From Nitrosopumilus sp. (GTDB taxonomy: Archaea; Thermoproteota; Nitrososphaeria; Nitrososphaerales; Nitrosopumilaceae): a DNA stretch of 64,000 nucleotides. The stretch lies in contig NZ_JANQTA010000003.1 in NCBI RefSeq assembly GCF_028278985.1, positions 19,295-83,294 of the forward strand. Direction: 5' to 3'. Below the pieces are notes generated by a model. It was not told the origin of the DNA. It made no database searches and saw only the letters and a list, made by a program, of their open reading frames with translations. Positions 27,197 to 47,630 of this stretch are shown here, piece after piece. The translations under genes and the position numbers were made by a program. Every line of letters begins with the position of its first letter. Within the stretch, counting starts at the first letter, position 1.

Positions 27197-28255
27197 TTAT
27201 TTTCCAACTGTTTGAGAACGATTAACATAATTATCAATCCCAATTAATCGTCCATCAACATCTGTTGTATCTCTTTTTGTTTTTCTTGGTAAATAGCATT
27301 TTTTACATGGAGAAAGATCAGTCATTCCTGTATGTTTTAAATGAATTTTTCTGGCATCAGTTAATTTTTTACCATGCCATATATTGAAAATTGAATCTTC
27401 ATTCACGTTATCTAATTTGTATTCTTCAAATTCATCATTAGAACACATCATTACAGTACCATCTGCACCAATTACAAGTCTCTCCCATAATTGAGGACAA
27501 GTGAAGTTATTTTCGTATTCAATGTCAGTATCATTTCCTAGATAATCAATTAGAGGATTTGATGCAACTTGATCAGTAATTGAGTTAAATGTGTTGTAAA
27601 AATCTTCTGGGTTTTTTGAAATAGCTGGCCATACAGTTTGAACTTTAATTACAGGTTTGACAACTCCACGTTTTTGTTTTATCTCAGAATATTTTTTAAT
27701 TTTTGAAACAGCATCATCAAATTTTAAGGGATAGCGAATTTTGTCATAAGTTTCTCCAATTCCATCAAATGAAATTGTTAACCAATCAAGATCTAAATCA
27801 ATAAGTTTTTGAAAACCTTTTTCATCTAAAAAACCACCATGAGTTAGGGTAGAGACTTCTTTAATGCCTTTATCTTTTGCATATTCAATCATTTCATAGA
27901 TATTTTCATTAAGAAATGCTTCGCCACGTAAACTAAGTCTTATTGAAAATAAATTATATTCTGAACATTCATCAATGATTTTTTTAAATAGATCAAAATC
28001 CATGTGTTTTCTGTTAATTTTCTTTTTGAACTCATCTGTTGTAGTATAACACATAGGACAACTTAGATTGCACAAGCTTGATAATTCTACATCTACATGA
28101 GACGGAAATTTAGGAACATGATGAAACCTAGGGTAAAGATGCCATTTGACTCTATTTTTTATGTAACTAAAGAGATGCCCTTGACCCCTATGTAATTCAA
28201 ATTTAAAATTCTGTGTTCTACTTGATAATCTAAATTGTCCTTTGTTAATTTTCAT
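27197..28255 (-). CDS. Radical SAM protein with SPASM/twitch domain
   Basis: CNLSCPMC; C-terminal CPQLW...DGTVMMC...CKKC. Confidence 0.92.
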   Translation of the reverse strand: MKINKGQFRLSSRTQNFKFELHRGQGHLFSYIKNRVKWHLYPRFHHVPKFPSHVDVELSSLCNLSCPMCYTTTDEFKKKINRKHMDFDLFKKIIDECSEYNLFSIRLSLRGEAFLNENIYEMIEYAKDKGIKEVSTLTHGGFLDEKGFQKLIDLDLDWLTISFDGIGETYDKIRYPLKFDDAVSKIKKYSEIKQKRGVVKPVIKVQTVWPAISKNPEDFYNTFNSITDQVASNPLIDYLGNDTDIEYENNFTCPQLWERLVIGADGTVMMCSNDEFEEYKLDNVNEDSIFNIWHGKKLTDARKIHLKHTGMTDLSPCKKCYLPRKTKRDTTDVDGRLIGIDNYVNRSQTVGK

Positions 28256-28330: not shown

Positions 28331-29062
28331 CTAGAAAGTTAAAGTCTCAAATTTACTTGTTCTTGAATGTACGATCTCAAAAACTTCTGCAGCCTTATAG
28401 CCTGAAAGACTTCCCCAACGCTTTGCTACAGCTTCAGTCATATCTTTAGAACGTGGATGGGGAGATTTTCGAATTTCATAATGATATGCTGCAAGTGCTT
28501 TAATTTTATATTTTAATTCAGAAGTAATTTCTACATAGAGATTTGGTTTAAACTCATAAGGTTTTCTCCAATCAGTAGCTGCAGGAATTTCAAATGAGAA
28601 GATTGAAGAAATTTTTGAACCAGGAATTGGTCGTGCTGCTGTAATTGTGGCTTCATAAGCAATTCTATGATCTAAATTAAGATCATTGTAGTGATGAGTA
28701 AATATTGTTGTTATTTTATTTTCTTCAATCTCTTTTTCTATTTCTTTAATAATTTTCAATAAGGGAATTTGATCCAATTCTTGATTTGGTAAATCAAGAA
28801 AACGAATTTTGTTAATTCCTAAAAGTTTTAAAGCAGATTTTGCATGTTTTTTTCTAGTTTGAATTTCTTTTTCCATTTTTTTCATTTCATCATGAGAAAT
28901 ATCATATTGAGGAGTACTAACATATCCAGATTTTCTTCTAGCAGTTATGCCTTCAGATAAAAATAATACTTTGATATTATGATGTTTTGAAAGTTTTTTC
29001 AAAGTACCACCCATTCCTATTGTTTCATCATCTGGATGTGCACAAACCACAAGAATATTCAT
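28331..29062 (-). CDS. PIG-L/LmbE family N-deacetylase
   Basis: AHPDDE; THHYNDLNLDH. Confidence 0.92.
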   Translation of the reverse strand: MNILVVCAHPDDETIGMGGTLKKLSKHHNIKVLFLSEGITARRKSGYVSTPQYDISHDEMKKMEKEIQTRKKHAKSALKLLGINKIRFLDLPNQELDQIPLLKIIKEIEKEIEENKITTIFTHHYNDLNLDHRIAYEATITAARPIPGSKISSIFSFEIPAATDWRKPYEFKPNLYVEITSELKYKIKALAAYHYEIRKSPHPRSKDMTEAVAKRWGSLSGYKAAEVFEIVHSRTSKFETLTF

Positions 29063-29099
29063 AATTGATTTTTCACTATAGAAATTCAGTTAATAATTG

Positions 29100-30089
29100 T
29101 TATAATGATTTTTGTCTACAAAAATTTTCCAAAAGAGTCACTATACGTTTTGAACCTTTTCCATCAACTACTCTTTTTCCAAAATAATTCATTTTTAGTC
29201 TTAGATCATAATTCAGCATTAAATCACGAACAGATTTTTCAATTTGTTTTAAACTTACATCATTTCCAAAACCAAGATTTTTTCCAAAATGTTTTTTTTC
29301 CATAAGTTTGGCGGTTTCGTTTTCAAATTTCTCACCACAAACAATAATTGAAGGAATTCCAAGATATGCTAATTCCATCAGCGTATTTCCTCCAGCAGTT
29401 ATAGCCAGATCGTGTTTTTTCATTATTACAGGCATATTAGATATATCTTTCAAAATTTTGATATTTTTGTTAGATTCAGATAGAATTTTGTTCAATTTTG
29501 ACCAACATTGAAAAGATGCTCCAAGTACTATAGAAATTTTAAATTTATTATCCAAGTTATTTAGGGCAGAAAGAATTTTTGGAATAAAACAGTATGTATC
29601 AGATCCCCCTTGAAGAACAAGGATTGAGGTAACATTTTTTTTAATTTTAATTTTACTAGTGAATTTTTTATTCAAAATTACATATTCAAATCCTGAAAAT
29701 GAATTTTTCACTTTACTACTTGGATAAAGATAGTTAATTCCATAATCAATAAGTTCATAGTTTTTTCCTACATAATCAATAGACGCAACTTTTGCAAATT
29801 TTTTAAAAAATTTTAGATTAATTTTTTTTTCATTTAATTTATCAATTATTATTAAGTCGGGATTAAACGATTTAAGAATTGAAATAGATTTTAAATTATT
29901 TATTTTTGAAAGAAGAGTACATTTGTGTTTTCTACTAATTATAGTCTTTGAAATTTTTTCAGTAGTAAGAAAATGAACTTTATGCTTATTTTTTATAAGT
30001 TGATCAGCTAAATTTGTAGATCTATAAACATGGCCTAATCCAATTTTATTATTTCCATCAACAACAAAAATAAAATTGTAAGATTTCAT
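29100..30089 (-). CDS. PseG/SpsG-family NDP-sugar hydrolase/GT28-like protein
   Basis: GLGHVYRS, QGGSD, DLAITAGGNTLME, VDGKG. Confidence 0.85.
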   Translation of the reverse strand: MKSYNFIFVVDGNNKIGLGHVYRSTNLADQLIKNKHKVHFLTTEKISKTIISRKHKCTLLSKINNLKSISILKSFNPDLIIIDKLNEKKINLKFFKKFAKVASIDYVGKNYELIDYGINYLYPSSKVKNSFSGFEYVILNKKFTSKIKIKKNVTSILVLQGGSDTYCFIPKILSALNNLDNKFKISIVLGASFQCWSKLNKILSESNKNIKILKDISNMPVIMKKHDLAITAGGNTLMELAYLGIPSIIVCGEKFENETAKLMEKKHFGKNLGFGNDVSLKQIEKSVRDLMLNYDLRLKMNYFGKRVVDGKGSKRIVTLLENFCRQKSL

Positions 30090-30098
30090 ATTCTATCT

Positions 30099-30908
30099 TC
30101 ATTTGTTATTATTTAATTTATTATCTTTAAGAAGTGATTTTTTATATCCTTCATCAAATGATGTATGATTATTAATTTTAATTAATGAAGGATTCAGATC
30201 AATTATTGATACAATATCATTAATTGTAACAATTTTTCTATTTTTTGGAAATTCCTTCCAGATTTTTTTAATGAATTTAAGATCTTGAGGAAGATCTACA
30301 GTACATCTAATATGAGAAAGATTTTTTTTATTTTTAATATTAGAAATCTTAAATTTTTGCGGGTTGAATTGAATATAAGGAAAAACATGTTCTAAGTCTG
30401 ATGGTTTTTTTGCCTCTTTCCAGGCACGTTTTAATGCTTTGTAACTTGAAATTTCAACTACCATACCTTGAGGAAAATTACAAAGAGAGTTAATATTTCC
30501 AGAAATGGTAGATTCAAAATTATTTGAAACATAATCGAACGAATTTTTCAAATATTTCCTGATGACCTTGTCAATAACTGTAGGATCCAAAAATGGGCAA
30601 TCAGAACTTATTCTCACTACAGGATCTAATGAAAATTTACTTGCACATTTAAAATATCTATCAAGAACATTTGTGTTTGAACCTAAGAAATATTGAATAT
30701 TATTTTTTTTACAGAAATCTATTATTTGTTTATCATTTTTTGCATGGGTTGTTGCAACAATAACATCATCTACATATTTTGAATTTTTGGTTTGTTCAAT
30801 AACATGAAATAGCATTGAATTTTTACCAATTTTTTTGAGTGCTTTTCCAGGAAAACGTTGAGAATTCATTCGTGCTTGAATTATTGGAGTAATTTTAGTT
30901 TTCAACAT
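30099..30908 (-). CDS. SpsF/PseF-type cytidylyltransferase (CMP-nonulosonate synthetase-like)
   Basis: IIQARMNSQRFPGK, VLDRY, RISSDCP, EHV, TVDLPQD. Confidence 0.88.
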   Translation of the reverse strand: MLKTKITPIIQARMNSQRFPGKALKKIGKNSMLFHVIEQTKNSKYVDDVIVATTHAKNDKQIIDFCKKNNIQYFLGSNTNVLDRYFKCASKFSLDPVVRISSDCPFLDPTVIDKVIRKYLKNSFDYVSNNFESTISGNINSLCNFPQGMVVEISSYKALKRAWKEAKKPSDLEHVFPYIQFNPQKFKISNIKNKKNLSHIRCTVDLPQDLKFIKKIWKEFPKNRKIVTINDIVSIIDLNPSLIKINNHTSFDEGYKKSLLKDNKLNNNK

Positions 30909-31593
30909 TATTCTGAGAATTTTTTAGTATTTCAAGGCTTTTTAGTCCATGATTGAATAGAAGATCCAGAATAGAAAGATTGGGAATAAATGAATCTGAA
31001 AAATGTTGTTCATATATTGGATGAGTAAAATTTTGATATTCCAAATTAATGTTGTTACTATTGAATAATTTTTCATTCATGTATTCTTTTCCGCCAATTC
31101 CTGAGATATATGTATCAGCTCCAATAGATTTGCAAATATTGACTAGACGTTCAGTAGATTTTCCATTAATATTCAAATCGGATTCTTTATAGATTTTTAA
31201 TTTAATTCCCAGCCATTCCATTACTTTTGTTATTGTTTCATAGTTCAATTCAAATAAAAAGTTCCATTCTTTCTCATACAGATTTTTCAAATAATCTTTA
31301 TACAAATTGAAAAATTTAGAATTTGAATATGATTTTTGGATTTTGGTAAAATGATTTTTTTTCCAATCAATTTCATTATTTATTTCAACTGTTTTGTTAG
31401 GTGAAAATTTGTGTTCCTTTTTAATTGGTACAGATAGCCAAATCCAGTCATTTGGAACAATAATTCTATTTCTATTCGTAAATTTCTTATCATATTGAGT
31501 ATTATCCATTAAAACAAGTGAGTCACCTAACGTCAACTTATGAAAAAAACCAGAATATGGGAAATAGTTTGGTTGATGAATAACAACTTTCAA
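30895..31593 (-). CDS. WbqC family protein
   Basis: IHQPNYFPY, FTNRNRI, YISGIGG, NLSILDLLFN; likely start TTG 31593. Confidence 0.9.
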   Translation of the reverse strand: MKVVIHQPNYFPYSGFFHKLTLGDSLVLMDNTQYDKKFTNRNRIIVPNDWIWLSVPIKKEHKFSPNKTVEINNEIDWKKNHFTKIQKSYSNSKFFNLYKDYLKNLYEKEWNFLFELNYETITKVMEWLGIKLKIYKESDLNINGKSTERLVNICKSIGADTYISGIGGKEYMNEKLFNSNNINLEYQNFTHPIYEQHFSDSFIPNLSILDLLFNHGLKSLEILKNSQNNVEN

Positions 31594-31677
31594 TAATGTA
31601 TGACAATTTTTTTCAACAATATTAAACTTTGATGGAATGCATTTCATTTATTTACATGATACCATTTTTTTTATACA

Positions 31678-32712
31678 GTGAAGCCATTAATTTTAAATGG
31701 AAAAAAAATAGGAGATGGATTTCCATGCTATACAATTGCTGAGATTGGGGGTTTGTTTACAAATTTTACAGAAGCAAAACGATTAATTGATTCTGCTAAA
31801 GAAATTGGATTAGATTCTGTAAAGTTTCAAACATTAGAGGCTGAAACTATTACTACAAAAAATAATTTTTTTAACATGGAGGCTACTGGTCATGTTTCAC
31901 AATATGATGTTTTTAAACAATTTGAATTATCTAAAGAATTACAATTTGAAGTTGTTAATTATGCAAATAAAATTGGAATAACAATTTTTTCTGCTCCTAG
32001 TCACATTAAAGATTTAGAAATTATGAAAGAAATGAAATTACCAATTTTTAAAATAGGTTCAGATTTAGCATGCCATGTGCCGTTACTCAAAGAAGTTGCA
32101 AAATTAGATAAGCCAATAATTTTGTCAACTGGAATGTGTAATTTGGATGAAGTTCGTGAATCGGTTGATGCGATAATTTCTACTGGAAATGAAAAGTTAG
32201 CATTATTACATTGCGTTTCAGACTATCCTACAAAGCCTGAAGAAACAAATCTTAATGCAATTATTTCTTTGAAAAAAGAATTTGATATTCCAGTAGGTCT
32301 TTCAGATCATAATATTGGATCAACGATTGCATTAGGAGCTGCAAGTATTGGAGCAAATATTATTGAAAAACACTTTAACAGTTCTCTAAATTCACCCTCA
32401 CCAGATGACATTGTTGCTCTTGACAAAGAACAATATTTTGAATTAATTCAATCTATTAGATTAATAGAAAAAGCAAAAGGTTCGGGTACTAAACTTCCAA
32501 CTGAGTCAGAAAAGAAAAATTTACAAACGAATAGAGTAAGCATAGTGACTTTAAAAGAGATCAAATCAGGACAAAAAATTACTAGAGAATTAATAGATAT
32601 TAGAAGGCCAGGAACCGGACTGAAACCTAGTTTAATTGAGCAAATAATTGGAAAAACCGCCAAAGTTGACATTCCTGCTGAAGAACCTCTAAAATTTGAA
32701 ATGTTGGAGTAA
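31678..32712 (+). CDS. neuB: N-acetylneuraminate synthase family (NeuB/PseI/SpsE) with SAF domain
   Basis: IAEIG, VKFQ, FKIGS, ILSTGM, LHCVSDYP, GLSDH, IEKHF; C-terminal RRPGTG SAF domain. Confidence 0.9.
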   Translation: MKPLILNGKKIGDGFPCYTIAEIGGLFTNFTEAKRLIDSAKEIGLDSVKFQTLEAETITTKNNFFNMEATGHVSQYDVFKQFELSKELQFEVVNYANKIGITIFSAPSHIKDLEIMKEMKLPIFKIGSDLACHVPLLKEVAKLDKPIILSTGMCNLDEVRESVDAIISTGNEKLALLHCVSDYPTKPEETNLNAIISLKKEFDIPVGLSDHNIGSTIALGAASIGANIIEKHFNSSLNSPSPDDIVALDKEQYFELIQSIRLIEKAKGSGTKLPTESEKKNLQTNRVSIVTLKEIKSGQKITRELIDIRRPGTGLKPSLIEQIIGKTAKVDIPAEEPLKFEMLE

Positions 32713-32727
32713 TAACATTATTGAATT

Positions 32728-33828
32728 ATGTCATTCAAAGCAGAAATTTTTGATGATTCAAACAAGAAATGGAATACATTATTAGAAAAAAGTCAAGAAT
32801 CTACTGTTTATCAAATTGCTGAATGGGCAAAAATTTATGAAGAAGTTTATGATTCGATTCCGATTTTCATAGTTGTAAAAAATTCAGGAGAGGAAATTGT
32901 AGGTCAATTATGCGTATTAATTCATAAAAATCTATTTTGGGATGATTCAAACGCAATAACAAAAATTATTGCTTCAAAAATGAAGTTGCGTACAACACTT
33001 AGTTGGTTTTATGGTCCTATAATTCATGATAAAAGTAATCAGAATGAAATAATTCATGAAATTTTAAAAAAAATTGATGAAATTGCTATAGAAAACAAAG
33101 TAACAATAATTCGAGGTTCTACGTCACCAATGAATCAAAATATTTCAATCAAGTTATTTGAAAAACTGGGGTATAAAATTGAAAATTGGGCAACATATGT
33201 TAGCAATCTTAAAACTTCAAATGAAATTTTTTACAATTCATTAAATAAAAAAACTAGATACGATGTAAGGAAATCAGAAAAAATAGGATTAGAATTTGAA
33301 ATATCAGAAAATGTTTCATCATCAATGGAGTTTTCAAAATTAAAAGCTGAGGCAAGGGAAAGAGAAGGACGAAAATCAGATATTAATAAAAAATTTGTAG
33401 ATGCAAGATGGAAAAATCTTAATGAAAATGGATATGGAAAATTATTCATAGCAAAAAATAACGGGATTTCAGTAGGAGGTGTTTATTGTTTAATTTTCAA
33501 TGACAATATTATTCAACATAGTGTAGTTAATTCTGTAAAAAAAGACTTAGAAGCAGGAAGTTTTCTTACTTGGAACATAATTAAATGGGGCATAGAAAAT
33601 GAACTAAATACATTTGATGTTGCAGGAGTAAATCCAAATCCAAAAAATGATAAAGAAAAACAAATAGATTTTTACAAATCAAAATGGGGCGGTGAAAAAT
33701 TAAAATATTTTTGGTGTACAAAAATAGTAAGTGATCATAAAATGAAAATTTCTTCAGTATTAAAAAATCCTAAAACTTCATTCAAAAAAATTTCAAAAAA
33801 TAATGTAACTAAAAATGAGATAAAATAA
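32728..33828 (+). CDS. FemAB-like GNAT (aminoacyl/acyl transferase)
   Basis: YGPII, KKTRYDVRKS, LTWNIIKWG, FDVAG, FYKSKWGG. Confidence 0.8.
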   Translation: MSFKAEIFDDSNKKWNTLLEKSQESTVYQIAEWAKIYEEVYDSIPIFIVVKNSGEEIVGQLCVLIHKNLFWDDSNAITKIIASKMKLRTTLSWFYGPIIHDKSNQNEIIHEILKKIDEIAIENKVTIIRGSTSPMNQNISIKLFEKLGYKIENWATYVSNLKTSNEIFYNSLNKKTRYDVRKSEKIGLEFEISENVSSSMEFSKLKAEAREREGRKSDINKKFVDARWKNLNENGYGKLFIAKNNGISVGGVYCLIFNDNIIQHSVVNSVKKDLEAGSFLTWNIIKWGIENELNTFDVAGVNPNPKNDKEKQIDFYKSKWGGEKLKYFWCTKIVSDHKMKISSVLKNPKTSFKKISKNNVTKNEIK

Positions 33829-33829
33829 A

Positions 33830-36238
33830 TTGGAATACAAATTTTTATCAAAAGTAGAGACTTTAAAATTTCTAGAAAATCACATAAAAAAATCAAAAAT
33901 TGAAAAAATTTATGATTTTACAGTAAATGATTGGAAAGAAAATAAATCAAAAATAATCTCAGATATAAAAAATAAATTTAAAGCAAAAATTATTGTTCGT
34001 AGTTCTGCGGCTGGAGAGGATTCATTTGAAGAATCTAAAGCGGGGAATTATGATAGTGTTCTTAATGTAAATTCAAATTCTTCAACATCTATTCAAAAAG
34101 CAATTGATAAGGTAATTGCATCTTATGAAAATAAAAATAATGAAAATCTAAGAAACCAAATTTTTGTTCAAACTCAAAGCACAGAAATTATTACCAGTGG
34201 AGTTGTTTTGACTAGAGATCACAATAATGCATCACCATATTATGTGATTAATTTTGAAGATGGAAACAAAACAGATGGAGTTACTAAAGGAATAGCCAAT
34301 AATACAGTAAAGATTTTTAAAAAAATTGAGAGAGAAAACATTCCAAAAAAATGGAAAAAACTTATTTTAGCAATAATAGAGATAGAAAAAATTTTCAAAA
34401 TAGATTATTTAGATGTAGAATTTGGAATAAATAAAAAACAGGAAATAATAATATTTCAAGTAAGACCCATTACATCATTAGAAGAAAATAAAATAAAAAT
34501 AAACTATATACAAGTTGAAAAACTAATAGATTTCAATAAAAAAAAATTTTTGAAACAAAAACAATGTTTTGGTAAAAAAATTTTTTCAGATATGAGTGAC
34601 TGGAATCCAGCTGAAATTATTGGAAATGATCCTAATTTGCTAGATTACTCACTGTATGATTACCTGATAATGAATGATTCGTGGAGTAAAGGAAGAGAAA
34701 AAATTGGATATAAAAAACATGAAAAAAATTTGATGGTAAAATTTGGAAACAAACCATATGTAGATGTCAACAAAAGTTTCTATTCATTAACTCCAATCAA
34801 TTTTCAAAAAAAGATTTCAGAAAAATTAATAAATTTTTATTTAAAAAAATTAGAGAAAAATCCTCATTTACACGATAAAATAGAATTTGATATAGTGTTT
34901 TCATGTTATGATTTTTCTCTAAATGAAAGATTGAAAGAATTAAAAAAAGCGGGATTTTCACAAAATGAAACAGTTCTGATTAAAAAAAATCTACTGGATT
35001 TTACCAATGACATTATTAAAAATTTTAATAAAATATTGAAAGATTCAGAAAAATCATTATTGCATATGACAATTAATAGAAAAAAAATTAATGCACAAAT
35101 TAACAAAAAATCTAATTACAAGAAATTATTGGATAATGCGTTTATTTTATTAGAAGATTGTAAAAAATATGGAATTATTCCTTTTTCATCAATGGCTAGA
35201 ATATCATTTATCGCATCTGCAATGTTAAACAGCTTATCAAGGGAAGGCATTGTTAAATCAGAAATTATTGATGATGTGATGAATTCAATAAATACACCAT
35301 TATCCAGATTCAGAGAAGATTATCAAAAATTATCTATGAAAAAAATTACAAAATCTCAATTTTTAGAAGAATATGGTCATCTAAGGCCTGGAACTTATGA
35401 TATATCTGCATTAAGATATGATCATGATGATAGATTTTTACAAGATTTTGAATTTAATATTAAGAATAAAAAATCATTAAAAAAATCAAATTTAAAAATT
35501 AATAATATTTTAAAAAAACATAAAATTTTGTTAGATAGTAATGAGTTTCTCAGATTTATTGAAAAAGCGATTCAAGGTAGAGAAGAATTAAAATTTGAAT
35601 TTACCAAGAACCTTTCAGATGCATTAGAATTAATCAACAAAGCAGGAAACGAATTAGGATTTTCAAGAGATGATTTAAAAGAACTGGACATTCTAAGGAT
35701 AAAAAATACATACAAAAAATTGAAAAAATCAGATTTGCAAATGATCTGGAAAAAAGAAATTTTGAAACAAGTGAAAATAAAAACTAAAAATGAAAGCATA
35801 TTACTCCCACCAATAATAGTATCCGAAAAAGATTTTGGAATAATTACTCAGTATACAGTAAAACCAAATTTCATTACACAAAACCAGATTACATCTAAAA
35901 TTATTGATCTAAAAGATCTAAACAATATTTCAGATTTAAAAAATAAAATAATTTTAATAGAAAATGCAGACCCTGGATACGATTGGATTTTTACAAAAAA
36001 CCCATCAGGATTAATTACTAAATATGGAGGAGTTGCATCACATATGTCAATTCGCTGTGCGGAAATTGCATTACCAGCAGCAATTGGATGTGGAGAGCTA
36101 TTATTTGAGCAAATTAAATCAGCATCAAAAATTCATCTAGACTGTAAAAATAATTTAATATCTATCTTAGAGCATAACACTAATGATGAATCTGTTGAAA
36201 TCAGAAAAGCCTTGAAGTCTTTGGGATACATAAAATGA
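33830..36238 (+). CDS. L-glutamine kinase (Cj1418-like PEP-utiliser/PPDK-fold phosphohistidine kinase)
   Basis: VRSS..GED, QVRP ATP-grasp; DWNPAEIIG, HDKIEF, GHLRPGTY; ADPGYD...GGVASHMSIR with His738. Confidence 0.88.
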   Translation: MEYKFLSKVETLKFLENHIKKSKIEKIYDFTVNDWKENKSKIISDIKNKFKAKIIVRSSAAGEDSFEESKAGNYDSVLNVNSNSSTSIQKAIDKVIASYENKNNENLRNQIFVQTQSTEIITSGVVLTRDHNNASPYYVINFEDGNKTDGVTKGIANNTVKIFKKIERENIPKKWKKLILAIIEIEKIFKIDYLDVEFGINKKQEIIIFQVRPITSLEENKIKINYIQVEKLIDFNKKKFLKQKQCFGKKIFSDMSDWNPAEIIGNDPNLLDYSLYDYLIMNDSWSKGREKIGYKKHEKNLMVKFGNKPYVDVNKSFYSLTPINFQKKISEKLINFYLKKLEKNPHLHDKIEFDIVFSCYDFSLNERLKELKKAGFSQNETVLIKKNLLDFTNDIIKNFNKILKDSEKSLLHMTINRKKINAQINKKSNYKKLLDNAFILLEDCKKYGIIPFSSMARISFIASAMLNSLSREGIVKSEIIDDVMNSINTPLSRFREDYQKLSMKKITKSQFLEEYGHLRPGTYDISALRYDHDDRFLQDFEFNIKNKKSLKKSNLKINNILKKHKILLDSNEFLRFIEKAIQGREELKFEFTKNLSDALELINKAGNELGFSRDDLKELDILRIKNTYKKLKKSDLQMIWKKEILKQVKIKTKNESILLPPIIVSEKDFGIITQYTVKPNFITQNQITSKIIDLKDLNNISDLKNKIILIENADPGYDWIFTKNPSGLITKYGGVASHMSIRCAEIALPAAIGCGELLFEQIKSASKIHLDCKNNLISILEHNTNDESVEIRKALKSLGYIK

Positions 36239-36903
36239 ATTATGAAAATGTGGAAAATAAAATAATGAAAATAGGTATTTCTTCTAGAATTGTTTCTGCT
36301 CCCAATTATGATGAAAAAAGAGACGCTATTAGTCATGAATGGCCTAAATTATTAGAGAAATTAGGATTAATTCCCATCATTATCCCAAATGTTTTAGAAA
36401 ATGTGAAAGAATTTGTTGAGAATGCTCAGATAGATGGACTAATTCTATCAGGAGGAGATAATATTGGAGAATTTATTCAACGTGATAATACTGAAAAAAA
36501 TCTTTTAGAATTTGGAATAAAGAAAGAAATTCCTATTATTGGAGTGTGTAGAGGAATGCAAATAATAAATAATTATTTTGGAGGTACTGAAATTAAAAAT
36601 AATAATAATGACCATGTAAATAAATCTCATTTCATAAAAATTAAACAAAATGAATTTGTTTCACTATTGAATAAAACTGAAACTAAAGTAAATTCATTTC
36701 ATAATAACATTATTACTAAAGAGCATATAGGAAATGGATTACAAATAGTAGCATTAGATAAAAATGATGAAACAATTGAGGCATTTAGTCATTCAAAATT
36801 TCCAATCATAGGAGTAATGTGGCATCCCGAAAGAGAACAAAACGAAGATAATTTAAAAATAATTAAAACATTTTTTGAAAATAAAAAATTTTGGTCGAAT
36901 TAA
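36235..36903 (+). CDS. Class I glutamine amidotransferase-fold hydrolase (Cj1417-like gamma-glutamyl-CDP-amidate hydrolase)
   Basis: LILSGGD, GVCRGMQ (Cys nucleophile), VNSFH, WHPE; Y-E-K-R-D-A N-terminal segment; gene context. Confidence 0.85.
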   Translation: MNYENVENKIMKIGISSRIVSAPNYDEKRDAISHEWPKLLEKLGLIPIIIPNVLENVKEFVENAQIDGLILSGGDNIGEFIQRDNTEKNLLEFGIKKEIPIIGVCRGMQIINNYFGGTEIKNNNNDHVNKSHFIKIKQNEFVSLLNKTETKVNSFHNNIITKEHIGNGLQIVALDKNDETIEAFSHSKFPIIGVMWHPEREQNEDNLKIIKTFFENKKFWSN

Positions 36904-36904
36904 T

Positions 36905-37693
36905 TTGAATGTGATAATTTTAGGAGCAGGAGAAGGTAAACGATTACGTCCATTAACAGAAAATCGCCCAAAATGTTTGATCGAATTATTTGGAAAATCA
37001 TTATTACAACATCAGATTGAGATTTTTGAAGAAAATGGAATAGAAGATATTTCTATTGTTACAGGATATAAATCAGATTTGATAAATTTTCCTAATGTAA
37101 ATTATTTTAAAAATGAAAATTTTGATACTACAAATATGGTAGAAACTTTATTTTGTGCTGAAAAAAAAATCTCAAATTCAACTATAGTTTCTTACGGAGA
37201 TATCATATTTGAAAGCAAAGTTCTAAAAAAATTAATCGACTCAGAAGAAAATATTTCTGTAGTTATAGATAAAAATTGGAGGAAGTATTGGGAAATGAGA
37301 TTTGAAAATCCATTAGATGATGCAGAAAATTTAATTCTAGATAGTGAAGGATATATCAAAAAAATAGGTCAGAAAGTATCGGATTATAAGGAAATTGAAG
37401 GTCAGTATATTGGCCTGATGAAATTCCAAAATAAAGGGATAGAATATATGAAAAAATACTATCACGAGGCTAAAAATCAGTCTAAAAATGGAAAAAATAT
37501 CTTAAATCCCTCTTTAGAATTTAAGAAATCATACATGACAGATTTCATTCAAGGAATGATTAATAATAAATTTCAGATTAAGTCTGTTCCAATTTTTAAT
37601 GGATGGTTAGAAGTAGACACAGTAGATGATTATAATCTGTATAATAAATTAAGAAAAGAACAAAAATTAGATGAATTGATTTCGATTAATTAG
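36905..37693 (+). CDS. LicC-type cytidylyltransferase (Cj1416-like CTP:phosphoglutamine cytidylyltransferase)
   Basis: ILGAGEGKRL, TNMVETLFCA, SYGDI, W..RFENPLDDAE, GQYIGL, WLEVD; likely TTG start 36905. Confidence 0.85.
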   Translation: MNVIILGAGEGKRLRPLTENRPKCLIELFGKSLLQHQIEIFEENGIEDISIVTGYKSDLINFPNVNYFKNENFDTTNMVETLFCAEKKISNSTIVSYGDIIFESKVLKKLIDSEENISVVIDKNWRKYWEMRFENPLDDAENLILDSEGYIKKIGQKVSDYKEIEGQYIGLMKFQNKGIEYMKKYYHEAKNQSKNGKNILNPSLEFKKSYMTDFIQGMINNKFQIKSVPIFNGWLEVDTVDDYNLYNKLRKEQKLDELISIN

Positions 37694-37742: not shown

Positions 37743-38888
37743 ATGGGAAAAGAGGATTATAATATTATTTTAATTAATTTAGATGGATTAAGAAGAGACA
37801 GAGTAGAACTTTGCTCTACATTAAATAACCTAAAAGAGGAAAATTGTTTTTTTTCAAATATGTTTACAGTGGCACCTTATACATTTGCATCATTACATGC
37901 AATTTTTTCAGGAATGTATCCATCAAGAAATGGAATGAATGCATATTATAATATTTTTAAATTTAAAAAAGATGAGATTACTACATTACCACAATTACTA
38001 CAAAATGAAGGTTACTACACATGTTGCGACATAATAAACAAAGTAGTAATTCCAAATCAAGGATTTGATGAATTAAATATATTCGATGAAGAAACAGTTG
38101 ACTTTAAGCAACGTCATAGAGACTTAATAAAAAAATTAGCAAATAAAGATAAATTCTTTTTATTTTTACATTTCACTGAAACTCATAAACATTTAGTTAG
38201 AGAAATTGTGAAAAAATACAAACAAGAATCCAATGATGATGAGTTTTTTAATTTGAAAGATGAAAACATTGAAAGATATAATTCCTATTTACCCTCATGT
38301 GATTCCTATGTTTCAGCAATTCTAGATATTTTGAAGGAATCTAAAATTGAACATAAGACAATCTTAATTTTCTTTTCTGATCATGGAACAAGTATTGGAG
38401 AGAGAAAAGGTGAAAAATTTTATGGTGTATTTACCTATGATTATACGATTAACGTTTTCTGCATTATTAAAACTCCTGAAAAATTAAACAAAAAAATCGA
38501 AGGCCAATGCCAAACTATCGATCTTTATCCAACAATTTCAGACATGTTGGGAATAAAATTAGAAGAAAACTCGATGATTCAAGGAAAATCATTGTTTAAA
38601 ATGATTGAAAATTTGGAGAATGATGAAAGAGAAGTATTTGTTGAAACTGGTGGTCTTTATGGCCCTTGGCCTTCGTCAAAAAAACACAATGTCTTTTGTC
38701 TTAGAAGTAAAATGAAAAAAATAATTTATAATGAAACACCTAATTCTTGGGAATTTTATGATTTGAAAAAAGATCCCAATGAATTACAAAATATTTATGA
38801 TGAAGAAAATAATGATGTTTTAGAATACAAAAAAAAATTAATGAAAAAATTTGAAGATAATAATATTGATTTAGGACTAAAAATTTAA
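37743..38888 (+). CDS. Sulfatase-fold/alkaline-phosphatase-superfamily hydrolase or transferase (Thr nucleophile)
   Basis: NLDGLR, APYTFAS (no CxPxR), SDHG, DLYPT, YDLKKDPNE. Confidence 0.8.
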   Translation: MGKEDYNIILINLDGLRRDRVELCSTLNNLKEENCFFSNMFTVAPYTFASLHAIFSGMYPSRNGMNAYYNIFKFKKDEITTLPQLLQNEGYYTCCDIINKVVIPNQGFDELNIFDEETVDFKQRHRDLIKKLANKDKFFLFLHFTETHKHLVREIVKKYKQESNDDEFFNLKDENIERYNSYLPSCDSYVSAILDILKESKIEHKTILIFFSDHGTSIGERKGEKFYGVFTYDYTINVFCIIKTPEKLNKKIEGQCQTIDLYPTISDMLGIKLEENSMIQGKSLFKMIENLENDEREVFVETGGLYGPWPSSKKHNVFCLRSKMKKIIYNETPNSWEFYDLKKDPNELQNIYDEENNDVLEYKKKLMKKFEDNNIDLGLKI

Positions 38889-40135
38889 TTATCAAGAAAA
38901 TTTTTTGAAATAAGATAATTCTGAACTATTTTAGAAATTAGTTGATTTCCCTTGGTATTGGGATGTCCACCATATTCATTATCATCTGAATAAAGATTAT
39001 CAAAATTAGATTCATTCAAAAAGTCCGAAGTAATATCAATTACATGTAAGTCGGATATTTTGGAAATTTGTTTAAAAAATAAATTCATAAAATTGTAATT
39101 ATTTTTAATATAGATCAAGTCATCTTTTTGAGGAATAAGAAGGAAGATAGGCGTGAAATTATGAATTTTAGAGAAATTTACAAATTCTTTAAGAATTTCA
39201 GTGAATAACTGAAGTGAATTTTTATTTTTATACAGTGATATTCTCCATTTTAGATTTATTTCCATTATAGGTTTCATAGGATTCCATTCGATAGAAGAAA
39301 TATCAGCACTGTTTCTTTTTTTAAATTGAAGTAGCAATACCCAAAATATTATTTTGAAATTTCTTTTAGAATTTTTTAATACATGAAGTATATATGGAAA
39401 TTTAATAATTTCTTTTAAAAATTTTAATTTATAAAAATAATCTTCATTTTTAATTTCATTTAAGATTTTATTTATTGAATGAAATTTTTTTGGATCATTA
39501 ACTTTGTTAGGAAGTAATTTTAAAACATTATTTTCAATTTTAAATTTTGGTTTAAAAGCAAATGTATTTCCATATTCATAGTAATGTTTCCAATAACTCA
39601 TGATTCTACTAATTGTATCTGGAACCACTCCAATAATGACAATTTTAGTAGGATTTTTTTCATATTCTCGCTTGAGTCTTAATAGACTTTGATCAATACC
39701 ATAATTTCCTACTCCAAAATTTAGAACATTAGAATTAGTTGATTTTGAAAGATAATGTTCCCATGTTTGATCATTGTTTACTTGACGACAAAAAGTAAAA
39801 GAATCTCCATAACAAGAAATATGCGATTTTTTATTATCAAAATCTGGATTAGTTCTACTCCCCAGGGAATTGATAGTCCATTTTGAAGAAATGAATGTAT
39901 TTTGATCAACGCCAGAAGTATTAGGTTTTCGAACCCAACCGAGTTCTGAATCATAGCCATGCGGAACAAATTTGTCTAATCCTTCTTCAGAAAAATGAGG
40001 ATTTTCATCTTTTGAAGTAATCATCCATTGGAAATGTTTCCTTACAAAAGTTACTAAAACGTAAAAAATAACTTCAATTAAGATGATGAAAATTACGATT
40101 AATGATATCAAATTAAAATATTCAGTCATTTGCAT
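38885..40135 (-). CDS. Membrane-anchored SGNH/GDSL hydrolase
   Basis: GDSFT, NFGVGNYG, GGHPN; N-terminal TM. Confidence 0.8.
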   Translation of the reverse strand: MQMTEYFNLISLIVIFIILIEVIFYVLVTFVRKHFQWMITSKDENPHFSEEGLDKFVPHGYDSELGWVRKPNTSGVDQNTFISSKWTINSLGSRTNPDFDNKKSHISCYGDSFTFCRQVNNDQTWEHYLSKSTNSNVLNFGVGNYGIDQSLLRLKREYEKNPTKIVIIGVVPDTISRIMSYWKHYYEYGNTFAFKPKFKIENNVLKLLPNKVNDPKKFHSINKILNEIKNEDYFYKLKFLKEIIKFPYILHVLKNSKRNFKIIFWVLLLQFKKRNSADISSIEWNPMKPIMEINLKWRISLYKNKNSLQLFTEILKEFVNFSKIHNFTPIFLLIPQKDDLIYIKNNYNFMNLFFKQISKISDLHVIDITSDFLNESNFDNLYSDDNEYGGHPNTKGNQLISKIVQNYLISKNFLDN

Positions 40136-41583: not shown

Positions 41584-42351
41584 ATGAAATCAGTTATTCT
41601 TGCAGGTGGATTAGGAACAAGAATTAGTGAGGAGACACATCTAAAGCCAAAACCCATGATTGAGATTGGAGGAATGCCTATGTTGTGGCATATTATGAAA
41701 ACTTACTCTGCATATGGAATTAATGATTTTGTAATTTGTTGCGGCTATAAGGGCTACATAATTAAAGAGTATTTTGCAAATTATTTTTTACATAGATCTG
41801 ATGTTACAATAGATTTAAAAAATAATCAAATGGATGTTCACCACAAATTTGCTGAACCATGGACAATAACACTTGTTGATACTGGAATTGAAACAATGAC
41901 AGGAGGAAGACTAAAGAAAGTAAAAGAATACGTTGAACAAGAAACTTTTTGTTTTACTTATGGGGATGGATTAAGTAATATTGATATAAAAAAATTAATT
42001 GAATTTCATAAAACAAAATCAAAAATTAGTACTGTTACTGCAGTACAGCCACCTGGAAGATTTGGAATGCTTGAAATAAAAAATGATGAAATTCAAAAGT
42101 TTGTAGAAAAACCAGCTGGGGATGGAGGATGGATTAATGGGGGATTTTTCGTGTTAGAACCAAATGTATTTGATTATATCAAGGATGAAAATACAATATG
42201 GGAAAGAGAGCCATTAGAACAATTAGCTAAGGAAAATCAGTTAAGCGCCTACAAACACTATGATTTTTGGCAACCACTTGATACTTTGAGAGATAAAAAT
42301 ATCTTAGATGATTTATGGGATTCAGGAAATGCTCCTTGGAAAGTTTGGTAA
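41584..42351 (+). CDS. rfbF: Glucose-1-phosphate cytidylyltransferase
   Basis: LAGGLGTRISEETHLKPKPM, VDTG..TMTGGRL, TYGDG, WINGGFF, FWQPLDTLRDK. Confidence 0.95.
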   Translation: MKSVILAGGLGTRISEETHLKPKPMIEIGGMPMLWHIMKTYSAYGINDFVICCGYKGYIIKEYFANYFLHRSDVTIDLKNNQMDVHHKFAEPWTITLVDTGIETMTGGRLKKVKEYVEQETFCFTYGDGLSNIDIKKLIEFHKTKSKISTVTAVQPPGRFGMLEIKNDEIQKFVEKPAGDGGWINGGFFVLEPNVFDYIKDENTIWEREPLEQLAKENQLSAYKHYDFWQPLDTLRDKNILDDLWDSGNAPWKVW

Positions 42352-43433
42352 TGGATAATAATTTTTGGAAGGATAAAAGAGTTCTAATTACTGGTCATAC
42401 TGGATTTAAGGGTAGTTGGCTTACAATAATTTTAAAAAAATTTGGAGCTAATGTAATTGGTTTTTCTAAAGATATTCCCACTAAACCAAGTTTATTTGAA
42501 ATTGCAGAAGTCAAAAATAATATTCAAAATATAATAGGAAATGTAAATAATCGTGACCAGATAGAGCAAGCATTTAATGAATTTAAACCAGAAATTGTTT
42601 TTCATATGGCTGCACAATCAATTGTTAGAGAATCTTACAAAAAACCATTAGAAACATTTTCGACAAACGTGTTAGGAACTGCAAATGTTTTAGAAGCTGT
42701 TAGAAATTCAAATTATGTAAAAGTTGTAATCGTCGTAACTAGTGACAAATCATACAAAGTAAAAAAAGATCATTCAAAATATTCTGAAGATGATCCTATG
42801 GGAGGATATGATCCTTACAGTAGTAGTAAAGGATGTGCAGAATTATTAACTTCTTCATATAGAAATTCATTTTTTAATCCCAGTAAATTTGATGAACACA
42901 ATGTTGCACTAGCATCTGTTAGAGCAGGAAATGTGGTAGGTGGAGGGGATTGGGGTATGGATAGATTACTACCAGACATAATTAGGGGAATTTTAAATAA
43001 ATCTAAAGTAGCAATACGAAATCCTGGTTCAACAAGACCTTGGCAATTTGTTTTGGATCCATTATTTGGATATTTGAGATTAGCTGAAAAAATGTGGCAG
43101 AGCAAAGGAGAATTTTCAGAAGGATGGAATTTTGGGCCAACTTCTGAAGAGGAACATACTGTCAAATGGATTACTGAGAATATTAAAAAACAATTTAAAG
43201 ATAAAATAAATTTTGAAATAAATTCATCAAATCAGCCTCATGAAGAAAAATATCTCAGATTAGATTGTTCAAAAGCTGAAAAAGAGCTATTATGGACAAG
43301 TAAAATGAAATTAGAAACCACGTTAAAATGGACGTTAAATTGGTACGAAGAATATATGAAAAATAGCGATATGAGAGAATTTACTGAGAGGCAGATAGAC
43401 GAATTTATTTTAATGGAAAATGAACTCACATAA
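42351..43433 (+). CDS. rfbG: CDP-glucose 4,6-dehydratase
   Basis: TGHTGFKGSW, HMAAQ, VTSDK, YSSSK, RAGNVVGGGDW, RPWQ; ATG 42351 coupled to the rfbF stop. Confidence 0.95.
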   Translation: MDNNFWKDKRVLITGHTGFKGSWLTIILKKFGANVIGFSKDIPTKPSLFEIAEVKNNIQNIIGNVNNRDQIEQAFNEFKPEIVFHMAAQSIVRESYKKPLETFSTNVLGTANVLEAVRNSNYVKVVIVVTSDKSYKVKKDHSKYSEDDPMGGYDPYSSSKGCAELLTSSYRNSFFNPSKFDEHNVALASVRAGNVVGGGDWGMDRLLPDIIRGILNKSKVAIRNPGSTRPWQFVLDPLFGYLRLAEKMWQSKGEFSEGWNFGPTSEEEHTVKWITENIKKQFKDKINFEINSSNQPHEEKYLRLDCSKAEKELLWTSKMKLETTLKWTLNWYEEYMKNSDMREFTERQIDEFILMENELT

Positions 43434-44652
43434 ATGTAGATTTTGTAACTCATCCATCAATAATGTATTTGTGGATCTGGGGATTTCACCATTATCAAAT
43501 TCATTTTTAAAAGAAAATGATTTGTCTGAGCCTGAAAAAAAATTCCCTCTTAAAGTTCTAGTTTGTCAAAAATGCTTCCTAGTACAAATTCCTGAATTTG
43601 AAACACCAGATAATATTTTTAGTGAATATGCATATTTTTCATCATATTCTAAAAATTGGTTAAATCATATACAGAATTATGTTGAAATGATTTCAAAGAA
43701 AATTAATTTAAATCAAAATAGTCTAGTTGTGGAGTTAGCAAGTAATGATGGCTACTTATTACAATTTTTTAAAGATAAAAAAATTCCAGTGTTAGGAATT
43801 GAACCAGCTGCAAATGTTGCAAAAGTTGCACAACAGAAAGGAATTGAAACAATGGTTAATTTTTTTAGTGAAAAACTTTCAGATGGACTTGTAAAAAAAA
43901 GTATTAAGGCAGATCTCATAGTTGGAAATAATGTCTTGGCTCATGTACCAAACATTAATGATTTTATAAGAGGAATGAAAAAAATTTTAAAATCTGATGG
44001 AATGATAAATATGGAATTTCCACATGTATTAGAATTAATCAAAAATAATCAATTTGATACAATTTATCATGAACACTTTTCTTATTTGTCATTAAATACA
44101 GTAAAAATGATATTTGAATTTCATAATATGACAATTTTTGACGTGGAGGAAATATCTACTCATGGAGGTTCATTACGGATATATGTAAAACATAAAGAAA
44201 ATGAAAATATTCCAATTAAAAATTCAGTAGAACTTCTTTTAAAGAAAGAAGATGAATTTGGATTGTTAGACATATCTACATATGAGAATTTTTCTCAGAA
44301 AACAAATCATATTAAAAGAAAATTAATAGATTTTTTTAATGAAGCAAAACAAAAAGGAGATAAAATTGTATGTTATGGTGCTGCAGCAAAAGGAAACACA
44401 CTACTAAATTTTTGTAAAATTGGTAAAGAGCATATAGAATATGTAGTAGATAATAATCCCTATAAGCAAGGATTGTATCTTCCAGGAACTCATCTAGAAA
44501 TTAAGGATCCCATAGAAATAAAAAATTCTAAACCAAAGTATATTGTTATTTTACCATGGAATATCAAAGATGAGATAATGAACGATATTTCATTCATACA
44601 TGAATGGGGAGGTAAATTTGTAATTCCAATTCCAGAGGTAGAAATCATATGA
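43420..44652 (+). CDS. NDP-hexose C-methyltransferase (zinc-ribbon plus SAM domain plus C-terminal domain)
   Basis: CRFC...CQKC, YAYFSS, ELASNDG, YHEH, YGAAAKG. Confidence 0.9.
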   Translation: MNSHKCRFCNSSINNVFVDLGISPLSNSFLKENDLSEPEKKFPLKVLVCQKCFLVQIPEFETPDNIFSEYAYFSSYSKNWLNHIQNYVEMISKKINLNQNSLVVELASNDGYLLQFFKDKKIPVLGIEPAANVAKVAQQKGIETMVNFFSEKLSDGLVKKSIKADLIVGNNVLAHVPNINDFIRGMKKILKSDGMINMEFPHVLELIKNNQFDTIYHEHFSYLSLNTVKMIFEFHNMTIFDVEEISTHGGSLRIYVKHKENENIPIKNSVELLLKKEDEFGLLDISTYENFSQKTNHIKRKLIDFFNEAKQKGDKIVCYGAAAKGNTLLNFCKIGKEHIEYVVDNNPYKQGLYLPGTHLEIKDPIEIKNSKPKYIVILPWNIKDEIMNDISFIHEWGGKFVIPIPEVEII

Positions 44653-45167
44653 ATTTTGTAAAAACAGAACTGCCTGGTGCGTATATAATAGAAATTGAGA
44701 AGATTTTAGATGATAGAGGATTTTTTGCAAGAACATTGGATTTGGAAAAAAATGAGGAATTAGGCATTGAATCAAACATAGTTCAATCTAGTATTTCGTA
44801 TAATGTCAAAAAAGGAACATTAAGAGGAATGCATTTTCAGATTAAACCATTTGAAGAGGCAAAATTCGTTAGGTGTACAAAAGGTAAAATTTTTGATGTT
44901 ATCATAGATCTTAGAGAGAATTCAAGTACATTTCAAAAATGGATTTCAGTAGAATTATCTGATGAGAATCATAGAATTTTGTATGTTCCAAAAGGATTTG
45001 CTCATGGTTTTCAGACATTAGTGGATAATACGGAGGTATTTTATGAAATCACACAAGTGTTTAATCCAGAATATGCTAGAGGCTTAAGATATGATAATAA
45101 AGAAATTGGAATTGAATGGCCATTGAATGTTTCAGTTATTTCAGAAAAAGATGCAAACTATGATTGA
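44649..45167 (+). CDS. rfbC: NDP-4-keto-6-deoxyhexose 3,5-epimerase (RmlC family)
   Basis: DDRGFF, TLRGMHFQ, YVPKGFAHGFQTL, ISEKD. Confidence 0.92.
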   Translation: MNFVKTELPGAYIIEIEKILDDRGFFARTLDLEKNEELGIESNIVQSSISYNVKKGTLRGMHFQIKPFEEAKFVRCTKGKIFDVIIDLRENSSTFQKWISVELSDENHRILYVPKGFAHGFQTLVDNTEVFYEITQVFNPEYARGLRYDNKEIGIEWPLNVSVISEKDANYD

Positions 45168-45211
45168 ATTTTTAATTCCCAAGAACGTTTAATTATAAAT
45201 ACACTAAAATT

Positions 45212-45949
45212 TTGAGTGTGACCAACAAAGATTTCGAAAAAAGAAATCAGAAAAAAATTAAATCAATGGTTGATGATAAAGAAATTGAGAAAATTTCAAG
45301 AAAATGGTTCAATAGAGTTTTTAGTTATGAATATTCATATCATTTTTCCTGGTTAGGAAGGCCTATTATTCAATTTCCACAGGATATGATTGCTATTCAG
45401 GAAATTATTTGGAAAACTAAACCAGACATAATAATTGAAACTGGAATTGCCCATGGGGGGTCATTGATTTTTTCAGCTTCAATTCTAGAATTAATTGGTA
45501 AAGGAAAGGTAATTGGGATAGACATTGACATAAGAAAACATAATAGAAAAGAAATAGAAAAACATCCTCTTAAAAAAAGAATTACAATGTTAGAAGGTTC
45601 TTCATTAGATGGAGAAATTTTGAAACAAGTGAAAAAACTTGTCAAAAATAAGAAAAAAATAGTTGTGTTTTTAGACTCATATCACACTCATGAACATGTA
45701 CTAAGAGAACTCGAAATGTATTCTCCATTAGTTAAAAACGGAAGTTATGTTGTAGTTTTTGATACAATGGTAGAATTTATGCCTAAAAACTCATTTCCTA
45801 ACAGACCATGGGATAAAGGAAATAATCCACATACGGCCGTAATGGATTTCCTGAAAAAAAATAAGCGTTTCAAAATAGATAAAGAAATTGAGAATAAACT
45901 ATTGATAACATCATGTCCAGATGGATTCTTAAAATGTATAAAAAGTTGA
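45212..45949 (+). CDS. CmcI (cephalosporin hydroxylase)/rhamnosyl O-methyltransferase family
   Basis: WLGRPIIQFPQD, IIETGIAHGGS, LDSYHTHEHV. Confidence 0.88.
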   Translation: MSVTNKDFEKRNQKKIKSMVDDKEIEKISRKWFNRVFSYEYSYHFSWLGRPIIQFPQDMIAIQEIIWKTKPDIIIETGIAHGGSLIFSASILELIGKGKVIGIDIDIRKHNRKEIEKHPLKKRITMLEGSSLDGEILKQVKKLVKNKKKIVVFLDSYHTHEHVLRELEMYSPLVKNGSYVVVFDTMVEFMPKNSFPNRPWDKGNNPHTAVMDFLKKNKRFKIDKEIENKLLITSCPDGFLKCIKS

Positions 45950-45996
45950 ATAGATACAAAAATTGTGAAATAGTAATGTATGTGGAGATTTAAAAA

Positions 45997-46809: not shown

Positions 46810-46914
46810 ATCTAAAGGAAATCTTATAGGGAAGTCTTACAAGAATTTTTAAAAAAAATAATTTTTTGATTCAAAAAGTATTATAACTTGTAATAAGATG
46901 TATTTTTTGTTAAT

Positions 46915-47622: not shown

Positions 47623-47630
47623 ACTATCGA

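Follow-up and report, generated by a model that had tools for sequence, protein, structure and literature searches.

Can an ammonia-oxidising archaeon build a phosphorus-nitrogen (P-N) bond and display it on its surface? The question is raised by a 64,000-nucleotide stretch of the genome of Nitrosopumilus sp. (contig NZ_JANQTA010000003.1, positions 19,295 to 83,294; hereafter the window, to which all coordinates below refer), in which three overlapping genes resemble the kinase, hydrolase and cytidylyltransferase of the phosphoramidate pathway of Campylobacter jejuni. Together with a fourth gene for a sulfatase-fold protein, they form a cassette of four genes (five here) that, on balance, probably makes cytidine diphosphoramidate (CDP-amidate) and puts phosphoramidate on a cell-surface glycan. 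The value of the finding is the variant architecture of this cassette and its tie to the methylphosphonate cluster of related archaea, and not the trio itself.

The core trio

The trio consists of three abutting open reading frames (ORFs) on the plus strand, with overlaps of 4 nt between the kinase and hydrolase genes and of 29 nt between the hydrolase and cytidylyltransferase genes:

33830-36238, plus strand: predicted L-glutamine kinase, 802 residues, TTG start; PPDK_N ATP-grasp and phospho-His swivel domain, catalytic H738
36235-36903, plus strand: predicted gamma-glutamyl-CDP-amidate hydrolase, 222 residues; class I GATase fold, Cys in GVCRG and His-x-Glu in WHPE
36875-37693, plus strand: predicted CTP:phosphoglutamine cytidylyltransferase, 272 residues; LicC-like NTP_transferase, GAGEGKRLRP at residue 17

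A preliminary description of the locus had already reported three tightly coupled genes with a series of diagnostic motifs, and all of these are in place: DWNPAEIIG (residue 257), HDKIEF (348), GHLRPGTY (516), ADPGYD (713) and ASHMS (736, its histidine being H738) in the kinase; GVCRG (103) and WHPE (196) in the hydrolase, with the Cys/His/Glu triad intact; and TNMVETLFCA (86) and RFENPLDDAE (142) in the cytidylyltransferase, which also has an N-terminal G-x-G-x-x-R nucleotide loop.

The kinase matches the NCBIfam equivalog NF004508 (PRK05849) with 842.7 bits (cut-off 501; E 2.5e-253), residues 3-780 aligning to model positions 9-788 of 789 and hence along the full length, which places the assignment far above chance. 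We take NF004508 to be the Cj1418 family, and several homologues 51-55% identical to the kinase carry the label "glutamine kinase" from the Joint Genome Institute (JGI); the named bacterial homologues that were fetched are 32-40% identical. Its only Pfam matches are PF01326 (PPDK_N) and PF00391 (PEP-utilizers), with no phosphoenolpyruvate (PEP)/pyruvate TIM-barrel domain, and neither H738 nor the flanking GG.ASHM.IRC motif varies among 35 aligned, diverse family members. PEP synthase and rifampin phosphotransferase were considered as identities for this protein and rejected, the PEP synthase, PPDK and rifamycin phosphotransferase models reaching at most 53 bits through shared domains only. The grouping of the kinase relative to PEP synthase-like proteins, a check suggested in the preliminary description, came out as that description would have it: in a tree built with FastTree (Shimodaira-Hasegawa-like support only), PpsA-like proteins form a distant outgroup and the kinases stand apart on a long branch, those of ammonia oxidisers forming one clade (support 100) that is sister to another archaeal clade (support 96). 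The 802-residue protein is a predicted L-glutamine kinase (Cj1418 type, EC 2.7.3.13).

Two structural peculiarities of the kinases deserve mention. The C-terminus of the present enzyme runs about 22 residues past the family model, ending ...LKSLGYIK (36185-36235), a tail that it has in common with a 472-residue sulfatase-fold protein encoded elsewhere in the window, which ends ...LKKLGYI (55965-56012). Kinases of the archaeal sister clade (loci L029-L039 and L074, from Woesearchaeota, Altiarchaeales and Methanosarcinales) carry an N-terminal extension of about 170 residues, which is a CTP_transf_like domain in the members scanned (P0129, P0131, P0135 and P0169); these loci also retain a separate LicC-like cytidylyltransferase, giving two cytidylyltransferase types per cluster.

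The hydrolase belongs to Pfam Peptidase_C26/GATase, and its top NCBIfam match is NF045546 (gamma-glutamyl-CDP-amidate hydrolase) with 124.7 bits, the runner-up family reaching 70 bits; the 222-residue protein is a predicted gamma-glutamyl-CDP-amidate hydrolase of the Cj1417 type. The third protein matches Pfam NTP_transferase (PF00483), with LicC (1jyk; E 1.6e-15) as its best PDB match. No curated Cj1416-type model matched either this protein or its bacterial counterparts in the NCBIfam scan, and PDB searches with the trio proteins returned no Cj1416-1418 entries. From its motifs and its company, the 272-residue protein is a predicted CTP:phosphoglutamine cytidylyltransferase (Cj1416 type).

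That company is broadly conserved. A scan of species-representative genomes with the kinase found at least 585 carrier species, and neighbourhoods were read in the best 80 named loci. The order kinase-hydrolase-cytidylyltransferase is retained in most of these, cytidylyltransferase homologues (E 1e-34 to 1e-71) lying near the kinase, and natural fusions join cytidylyltransferase to kinase, kinase to Peptidase_C26 (in many bacteria) and APS_kinase to kinase. Across phyla, it is difficult to see why a GATase-type hydrolase should be linked or fused to the kinase if the intermediate were not glutamine-derived. In C. jejuni, Cj1415-1418 make CDP-phosphoramidate 3'-phosphate from glutamine, ATP and CTP (PMC11800397). 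Together with this literature, the curated-model matches, the conserved gene order and the fusions lead us to read the trio as very probably making CDP-amidate.

A threonine enzyme as the fourth gene

The preliminary description spoke of a triad. The unit has at least four genes, however, and the Cj1415-type kinase on which the Campylobacter route depends is missing from it. The additional gene is:

37743-38888, plus strand: sulfatase-fold (alkaline-phosphatase superfamily) enzyme, 381 residues, candidate phosphoramidate transferase; Thr47 replaces formylglycine

This gene follows that of the cytidylyltransferase in 10/10 complete ammonia-oxidiser loci from three genera (all eight carriers in the genus plus two further genera). 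Across 11 homologues of the enzyme, D14, T47, H148, D213 and H214 are invariant, and in alignment with three solved sulfatases T47 falls on their nucleophile. The formylglycine motif CxPxR (C/S-x-P-x-R) is absent, the aligned position reading T-F-A-S-L. The fold is S1 sulfatase-like (TM 0.71-0.76 to solved structures); residues 9-68 match Pfam Phosphodiest, and matches to EptA/MCR are weak. Neither a signal peptide nor a transmembrane segment is predicted in the enzyme, which is read as cytoplasmic. A true sulfatase, matured by the product of a radical SAM/SPASM gene (27197-28255), was considered and rejected: CxPxR is missing and the radical SAM protein matches no sulfatase-maturase model.

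Threonine is the nucleophile in the phosphoryl-transfer branch of the alkaline-phosphatase superfamily, which includes EptA and NPP, and the Thr enzyme appears to carry the Thr-nucleophile and Asp/Asp-His metal-ligand pattern of that type. What it has in common with EptA/MCR-type phosphoethanolamine transferases and NPP are Sulfatase/Phosphodiest Pfam membership, the position of the threonine nucleophile and the Asp and Asp-His ligands. Unlike EptA/MCR, it is predicted to be soluble and cytoplasmic, with no membrane domain, and its donor would be a nucleotide where theirs is a lipid; its overall fold, unlike that of EptA/NPP, is nearest to S1 sulfatases.

A link to methylphosphonate clusters

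The Thr enzyme also occurs apart from the kinase. Twelve genomes of the genus have a homologue but no kinase, and the homologue lies 2-3 kb from a PEP mutase gene in all ten copies tested (eight from kinase-less genomes, the other two being second copies in G063 and G173). For example, the cluster of genome G010 comprises PEP mutase, a two-subunit phosphonopyruvate decarboxylase, an Fe-alcohol dehydrogenase and a 453-residue HEPD/MpnS-like protein, together with a cytidylyltransferase paralogue, a 381-residue-type protein and a sulfatase-fold protein of about 450-455 residues. This composition is that known from the methylphosphonate cluster of Nitrosopumilus maritimus. Where arylsulfatase-like genes occur in (methyl)phosphonate neighbourhoods, they have been read as ester-forming, and the methylphosphonate-type cluster is predicted to esterify a CMP-activated phosphorus head group to polysaccharide (PMC9381506).

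Two further genes of the window connect its cassette with such carbon-phosphorus (C-P) clusters:

21083-22099, plus strand: PGI/SIS-domain gene at the left edge of the low-GC glycan island; homologues flank phosphonate clusters
55962-57380, minus strand: second, larger sulfatase-fold paralogue, 472 residues, with Thr at the nucleophile position (PVTCPS); Pfam Sulfatase

Next to the phosphonate clusters of G010, G158, G063 and G173 lie homologues of the PGI-like gene (E 1e-116 to 1e-140), and in G171 such a homologue is about 2.5 kb away from the P-N cassette. The 472-residue paralogue has homologues no more than about 2.5 kb from the kinase in G019, G171, G173, G233, G208 and G457, and others inside phosphonate clusters. 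The cassette and the methylphosphonate-type cluster have in common paralogues of the cytidylyltransferase, of the 381-residue Thr enzyme and of the ~455-residue sulfatase-fold protein, as well as the same PGI-like flank. They differ in the head group, which the methylphosphonate cluster derives from PEP with a C-P bond and this cassette would derive from glutamine with a P-N bond.

The host genome (G000) has no phosphonate-type PEP mutase or C-P cluster; both kinds of cassette are present in G063 and G173. In the tree of Thr enzymes there are two P-N clades and one C-P clade, all apart from the larger sulfatase-fold paralogue, and the cytidylyltransferases of C-P clusters likewise form their own clade.

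On one metagenome contig (L027:11944-18340), the 4 kb after a P-N cassette encode a second, 379-residue Thr-type protein of the phosphonate-cluster clade and a cytidylyltransferase fragment, so that P-N and C-P delivery genes can adjoin.

Distribution of the cassette

The preliminary description called the genes "Campylobacter-type", which is misleading, and implied a uniqueness that was overstated. The at least 585 carrier species include many archaea, and the kinases of ammonia oxidisers are sister to other archaeal ones. At E<=1e-30, the kinase family comprises 1504 clusters of 50% identity, with carriers in Woesearchaeota, Pacearchaeota, Altiarchaeales, Nanoarchaeota, Micrarchaeia and Methanosarcinales, as well as many bacteria; no Campylobacterota appear among the best 80 named kinase loci, nor any Campylobacter names in a cluster look-up of ten representatives (764-787 residues). 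The trio has, moreover, already been predicted in Borgs of Methanoperedens (bioRxiv 10.1101/2024.11.05.622173). It is not very special to this lineage.

A survey of the trio, also proposed in the preliminary description, has now been carried out in archaeal genomes. Among ammonia oxidisers the cassette is rare and patchy: it was found in 8/151 species genomes of the genus and in 9/401 genomes sampled across the class, all from one family (4/81 genera). Within the genus, identity between copies is only 50-60%, in line with the cassette having long resided in a hypervariable island. In nature at large it is not rare, as metagenomes contain at least 120 clusters (90% identity) of close relatives of the 381-residue Thr enzyme.

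A rearranged layout was seen in two genomes, G167 (L113:8549-9840) and G080 (L110:8462-9726), where the kinase gene is inverted and two small ORFs lie between it and the Thr-enzyme gene. In G167 these encode a 198-residue protein with no Pfam match and a 231-residue Formyl_trans_N protein; the pair in G080 measures 192 and 229 residues.

Genomic island and host

The cassette is part of a low-GC island, the guanine-plus-cytosine fraction dropping from about 0.32 to about 0.26 past 22 kb of the window. Around it, the island encodes glycosyltransferases, a Polysacc_synt flippase-type gene, a deoxysugar set and several methyltransferases. Directly upstream (28331-33828) lies a nonulosonic-acid set with an NeuB/PseI-like synthase, a PseG-like hydrolase, a CTP_transf_3 cytidylyltransferase (CMP-sugar synthetase), a PIG-L deacetylase and WbqC. 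The kinase starts 2 nt downstream of the stop codon of the preceding gene:

32728-33828, plus strand: FemAB-like GNAT, 366 residues; Acetyltransf_6 and pepcterm_femAB matches, both weak; local context, not a conserved member

A homologue of this gene adjoins the kinase in only one metagenome locus (L024). The downstream deoxysugar run (41584-48383) encodes an NTP transferase, a 4,6-dehydratase, a C-methyltransferase, a 3,5-epimerase, CmcI-like and TylF-like O-methyltransferases and a PhyH dioxygenase. None of the island methyltransferases is consistently linked to the cassette across the compared loci. The glycan context ascribed to the trio in the preliminary description is borne out, as the trio does sit in a glycan-biosynthesis island.

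The host was described there as an ammonia-oxidising archaeon, and rightly so, since archaeal AmoA is encoded in its assembly, which is 99% complete and comprises 1.69 Mb in 32 contigs. The amoA match is divided between two contig ends (C8:118243-118776 and C28:44017-44130), the amo locus being fragmented in the assembly. No 16S rRNA gene was found in the assembly, and an Rfam scan of the window returned two tRNAs only.

Proposed route and competing explanations

By homology with the C. jejuni enzymes, the LicC-like enzyme would couple the product of the kinase to CTP, giving CDP-L-glutamine, and the GATase-fold hydrolase would then remove glutamate to leave CDP-amidate. The gene context suggests a last step in which Thr47 of the 381-residue enzyme would attack the terminal phosphorus, with CMP as leaving group, and the phosphoramidate would then be handed to a hydroxyl of a sugar. 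Transfer would thus proceed directly from CDP-amidate, with no Cj1415-type 3'-phosphorylation; direct attack by the Thr enzyme would make that modification unnecessary. The attraction of this scheme is that CDP-amidate and CMP-methylphosphonate differ only in carrying NH2 or CH3 on the transferred phosphorus, and that the same pair of cytidylyltransferase and Thr enzyme, as paralogues, serves the methylphosphonate-type cluster of sister species. We offer the transfer mechanism tentatively, as an analogy that may well fail. It is more speculative still, and rather doubtful, that Thr-nucleophile sulfatase-fold proteins of about 375 residues are a new class of transferases that move phosphorus head groups from CMP-linked donors to glycans, one paralogue handling methylphosphonate and another phosphoramidate. 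Taken as a whole, the claim of the preliminary description that this archaeon makes CDP-amidate for a glycan keeps its core, in that the trio is by homology a CDP-amidate set and its kinase is distinct from PEP synthase-like proteins; what falls away is the framing as a "Campylobacter-type triad".

Several observations weigh against the proposal. The homology to the C. jejuni enzymes rests on curated models, JGI names and synteny, and the 124.7 bits of the hydrolase lie under the NF045546 cut-off of 250. We infer the transferase role of the Thr enzyme from context only, and its solved structural neighbours are hydrolases. Most clusters outside the ammonia oxidisers carry an adjacent or fused gene like that of adenosine 5'-phosphosulfate (APS) kinase, and no Thr enzyme; a housekeeping APS kinase could in principle carry out the 3'-phosphorylation, and a neighbouring SGNH-like protein is an alternative transferase candidate. 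Finally, a search of public sequencing runs found no RNA run holding the stretch, and the sole run holding all of it is one coral metagenome, probably the source sample.

This SGNH-like candidate is the accessory partner of the cassette:

38885-40135, minus strand: membrane-anchored SGNH/AlgX-like protein, 416 residues, cassette accessory partner; atlas model pTM 0.90, SGNH/GDSL clusters

In the main competing explanation, CDP-amidate is made in the same way and transfer then follows the Campylobacter scheme: the housekeeping APS kinase, CysC, phosphorylates it at the 3' position, the SGNH-like or some other protein acts as the transferase, and the Thr enzyme, in keeping with its nearest solved folds, is a hydrolase that, for example, trims, recycles or removes phospho-substituents. 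An APS kinase does exist in the genome, and SGNH-like homologues (E 1e-84 to 1e-125) lie in or beside kinase clusters in Omnitrophota and Polynucleobacter, where they belong to operons with the APS-kinase-like gene, and next to the trio in Woesearchaeota and Methanosarcinales; the one near a Legionella kinase cluster is weaker (2e-23). No dedicated Cj1415-type (APS-kinase-fold) gene, however, was found in the window or in the 10 complete ammonia-oxidiser loci. The host's only APS kinase is encoded on another contig, beside an inositol-monophosphatase (CysQ-like) gene, and 60/61 genomes of the genus have exactly one copy irrespective of the cassette; as a core, single-copy gene unlinked to the cassette, it was ruled out as a dedicated Cj1415. 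The SGNH-like gene stands beside just 2/8 genus cassettes (those of the host and G021), whereas the Thr-enzyme gene is present in every complete locus and its paralogues track a second phosphorus head-group pathway. We regard this explanation as unlikely.

Could the trio instead be homologous to the Campylobacter set and yet act on another substrate, some other phospho-amino acid or amide, so that the CDP-activated head group and the resulting decoration are not phosphoramidate? Identity to the characterised members is probably low, and the named bacterial homologues of the kinase that were fetched are at 32-40%; LicC-like enzymes activate varied phospho-compounds, CDP-L-threonine having been proposed for CD0242 of C. 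difficile; and the hydrolase misses its curated cut-off. A control scan of hydrolases taken from five other kinase clusters, of which four are bacterial and one belongs to Methanosarcinales and four have an APS-kinase-like gene, gave 89-134 bits on NF045546, so that this cut-off catches only close Campylobacter relatives and is no argument against membership. A gamma-glutamyl hydrolase tied to the kinase across phyla is sensible only for a glutamine-derived intermediate, and the kinase is well over its own equivalog cut-off along its full length. A different substrate appears quite improbable to us.

That the cassette is a silent or decaying passenger of the hypervariable island and makes nothing here would suit its patchiness, the lower GC of the island relative to its flank and the lack of an RNA run holding the stretch, but is hardly credible given that all ORFs are intact with conserved catalytic residues, that gene order is retained across genera at 50-60% identity, which argues for purifying selection, and that close relatives of the Thr enzyme abound in metagenomes.

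Comparison with known systems

To our knowledge, only a few bacteria have phosphoramidate glycans whose chemistry is established. The best comparison for the proposed P-N cassette is the O-methyl phosphoramidate (MeOPN) pathway of C. jejuni (Cj1415-Cj1418 with Cj1421/Cj1422), with which it shares the kinase architecture, the GATase-fold hydrolase, the LicC-like cytidylyltransferase and location in a surface-glycan locus. It differs in having no dedicated Cj1415-type kinase and in the added Thr-type sulfatase-fold enzyme, and its host is an archaeon with an S-layer, whereas C. jejuni has a capsule. No methyltransferase is consistently linked to the archaeal loci, and the group may be non-methylated; non-methylated phosphoramidate has been reported for the lipopolysaccharides of Xanthomonas and Shewanella (PMC3907429).

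The Borg cluster has the same trio, is archaeal, is likewise a bioinformatic prediction and lies in a glycoconjugate region next to phosphonate genes (bioRxiv 10.1101/2024.11.05.622173). It is carried, however, on an extrachromosomal element of a methanotroph, and that work does not discuss a Thr-type sulfatase-fold partner or the missing 3'-kinase. In the literature searched, we found no report of glutamine kinase or phosphoramidate in ammonia-oxidising archaea.

Implications

Methylphosphonate is a proposed source of methane in oxic seawater. If our reading is correct, some populations of these abundant marine archaea carry a P-N coat where sister populations carry methylphosphonate. The shared pair of cytidylyltransferase and Thr enzyme is a concrete candidate for the delivery of either head group to sugar, and suggests a route of phosphoramidate transfer that needs no 3'-phosphorylated donor. 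On the more speculative view of the Thr-nucleophile proteins as a new class of transferases, marine ammonia oxidisers would have a single surface-decoration island at which C-P and P-N cassettes are interchangeable alleles, the step by which methylphosphonate is esterified to polysaccharide would be identified, and P-N compounds would join the repertoire of these archaea. In C. jejuni, MeOPN is a phage receptor (PMC3907429), and when strains switch such groups, the change is of a type that alters recognition by viruses.

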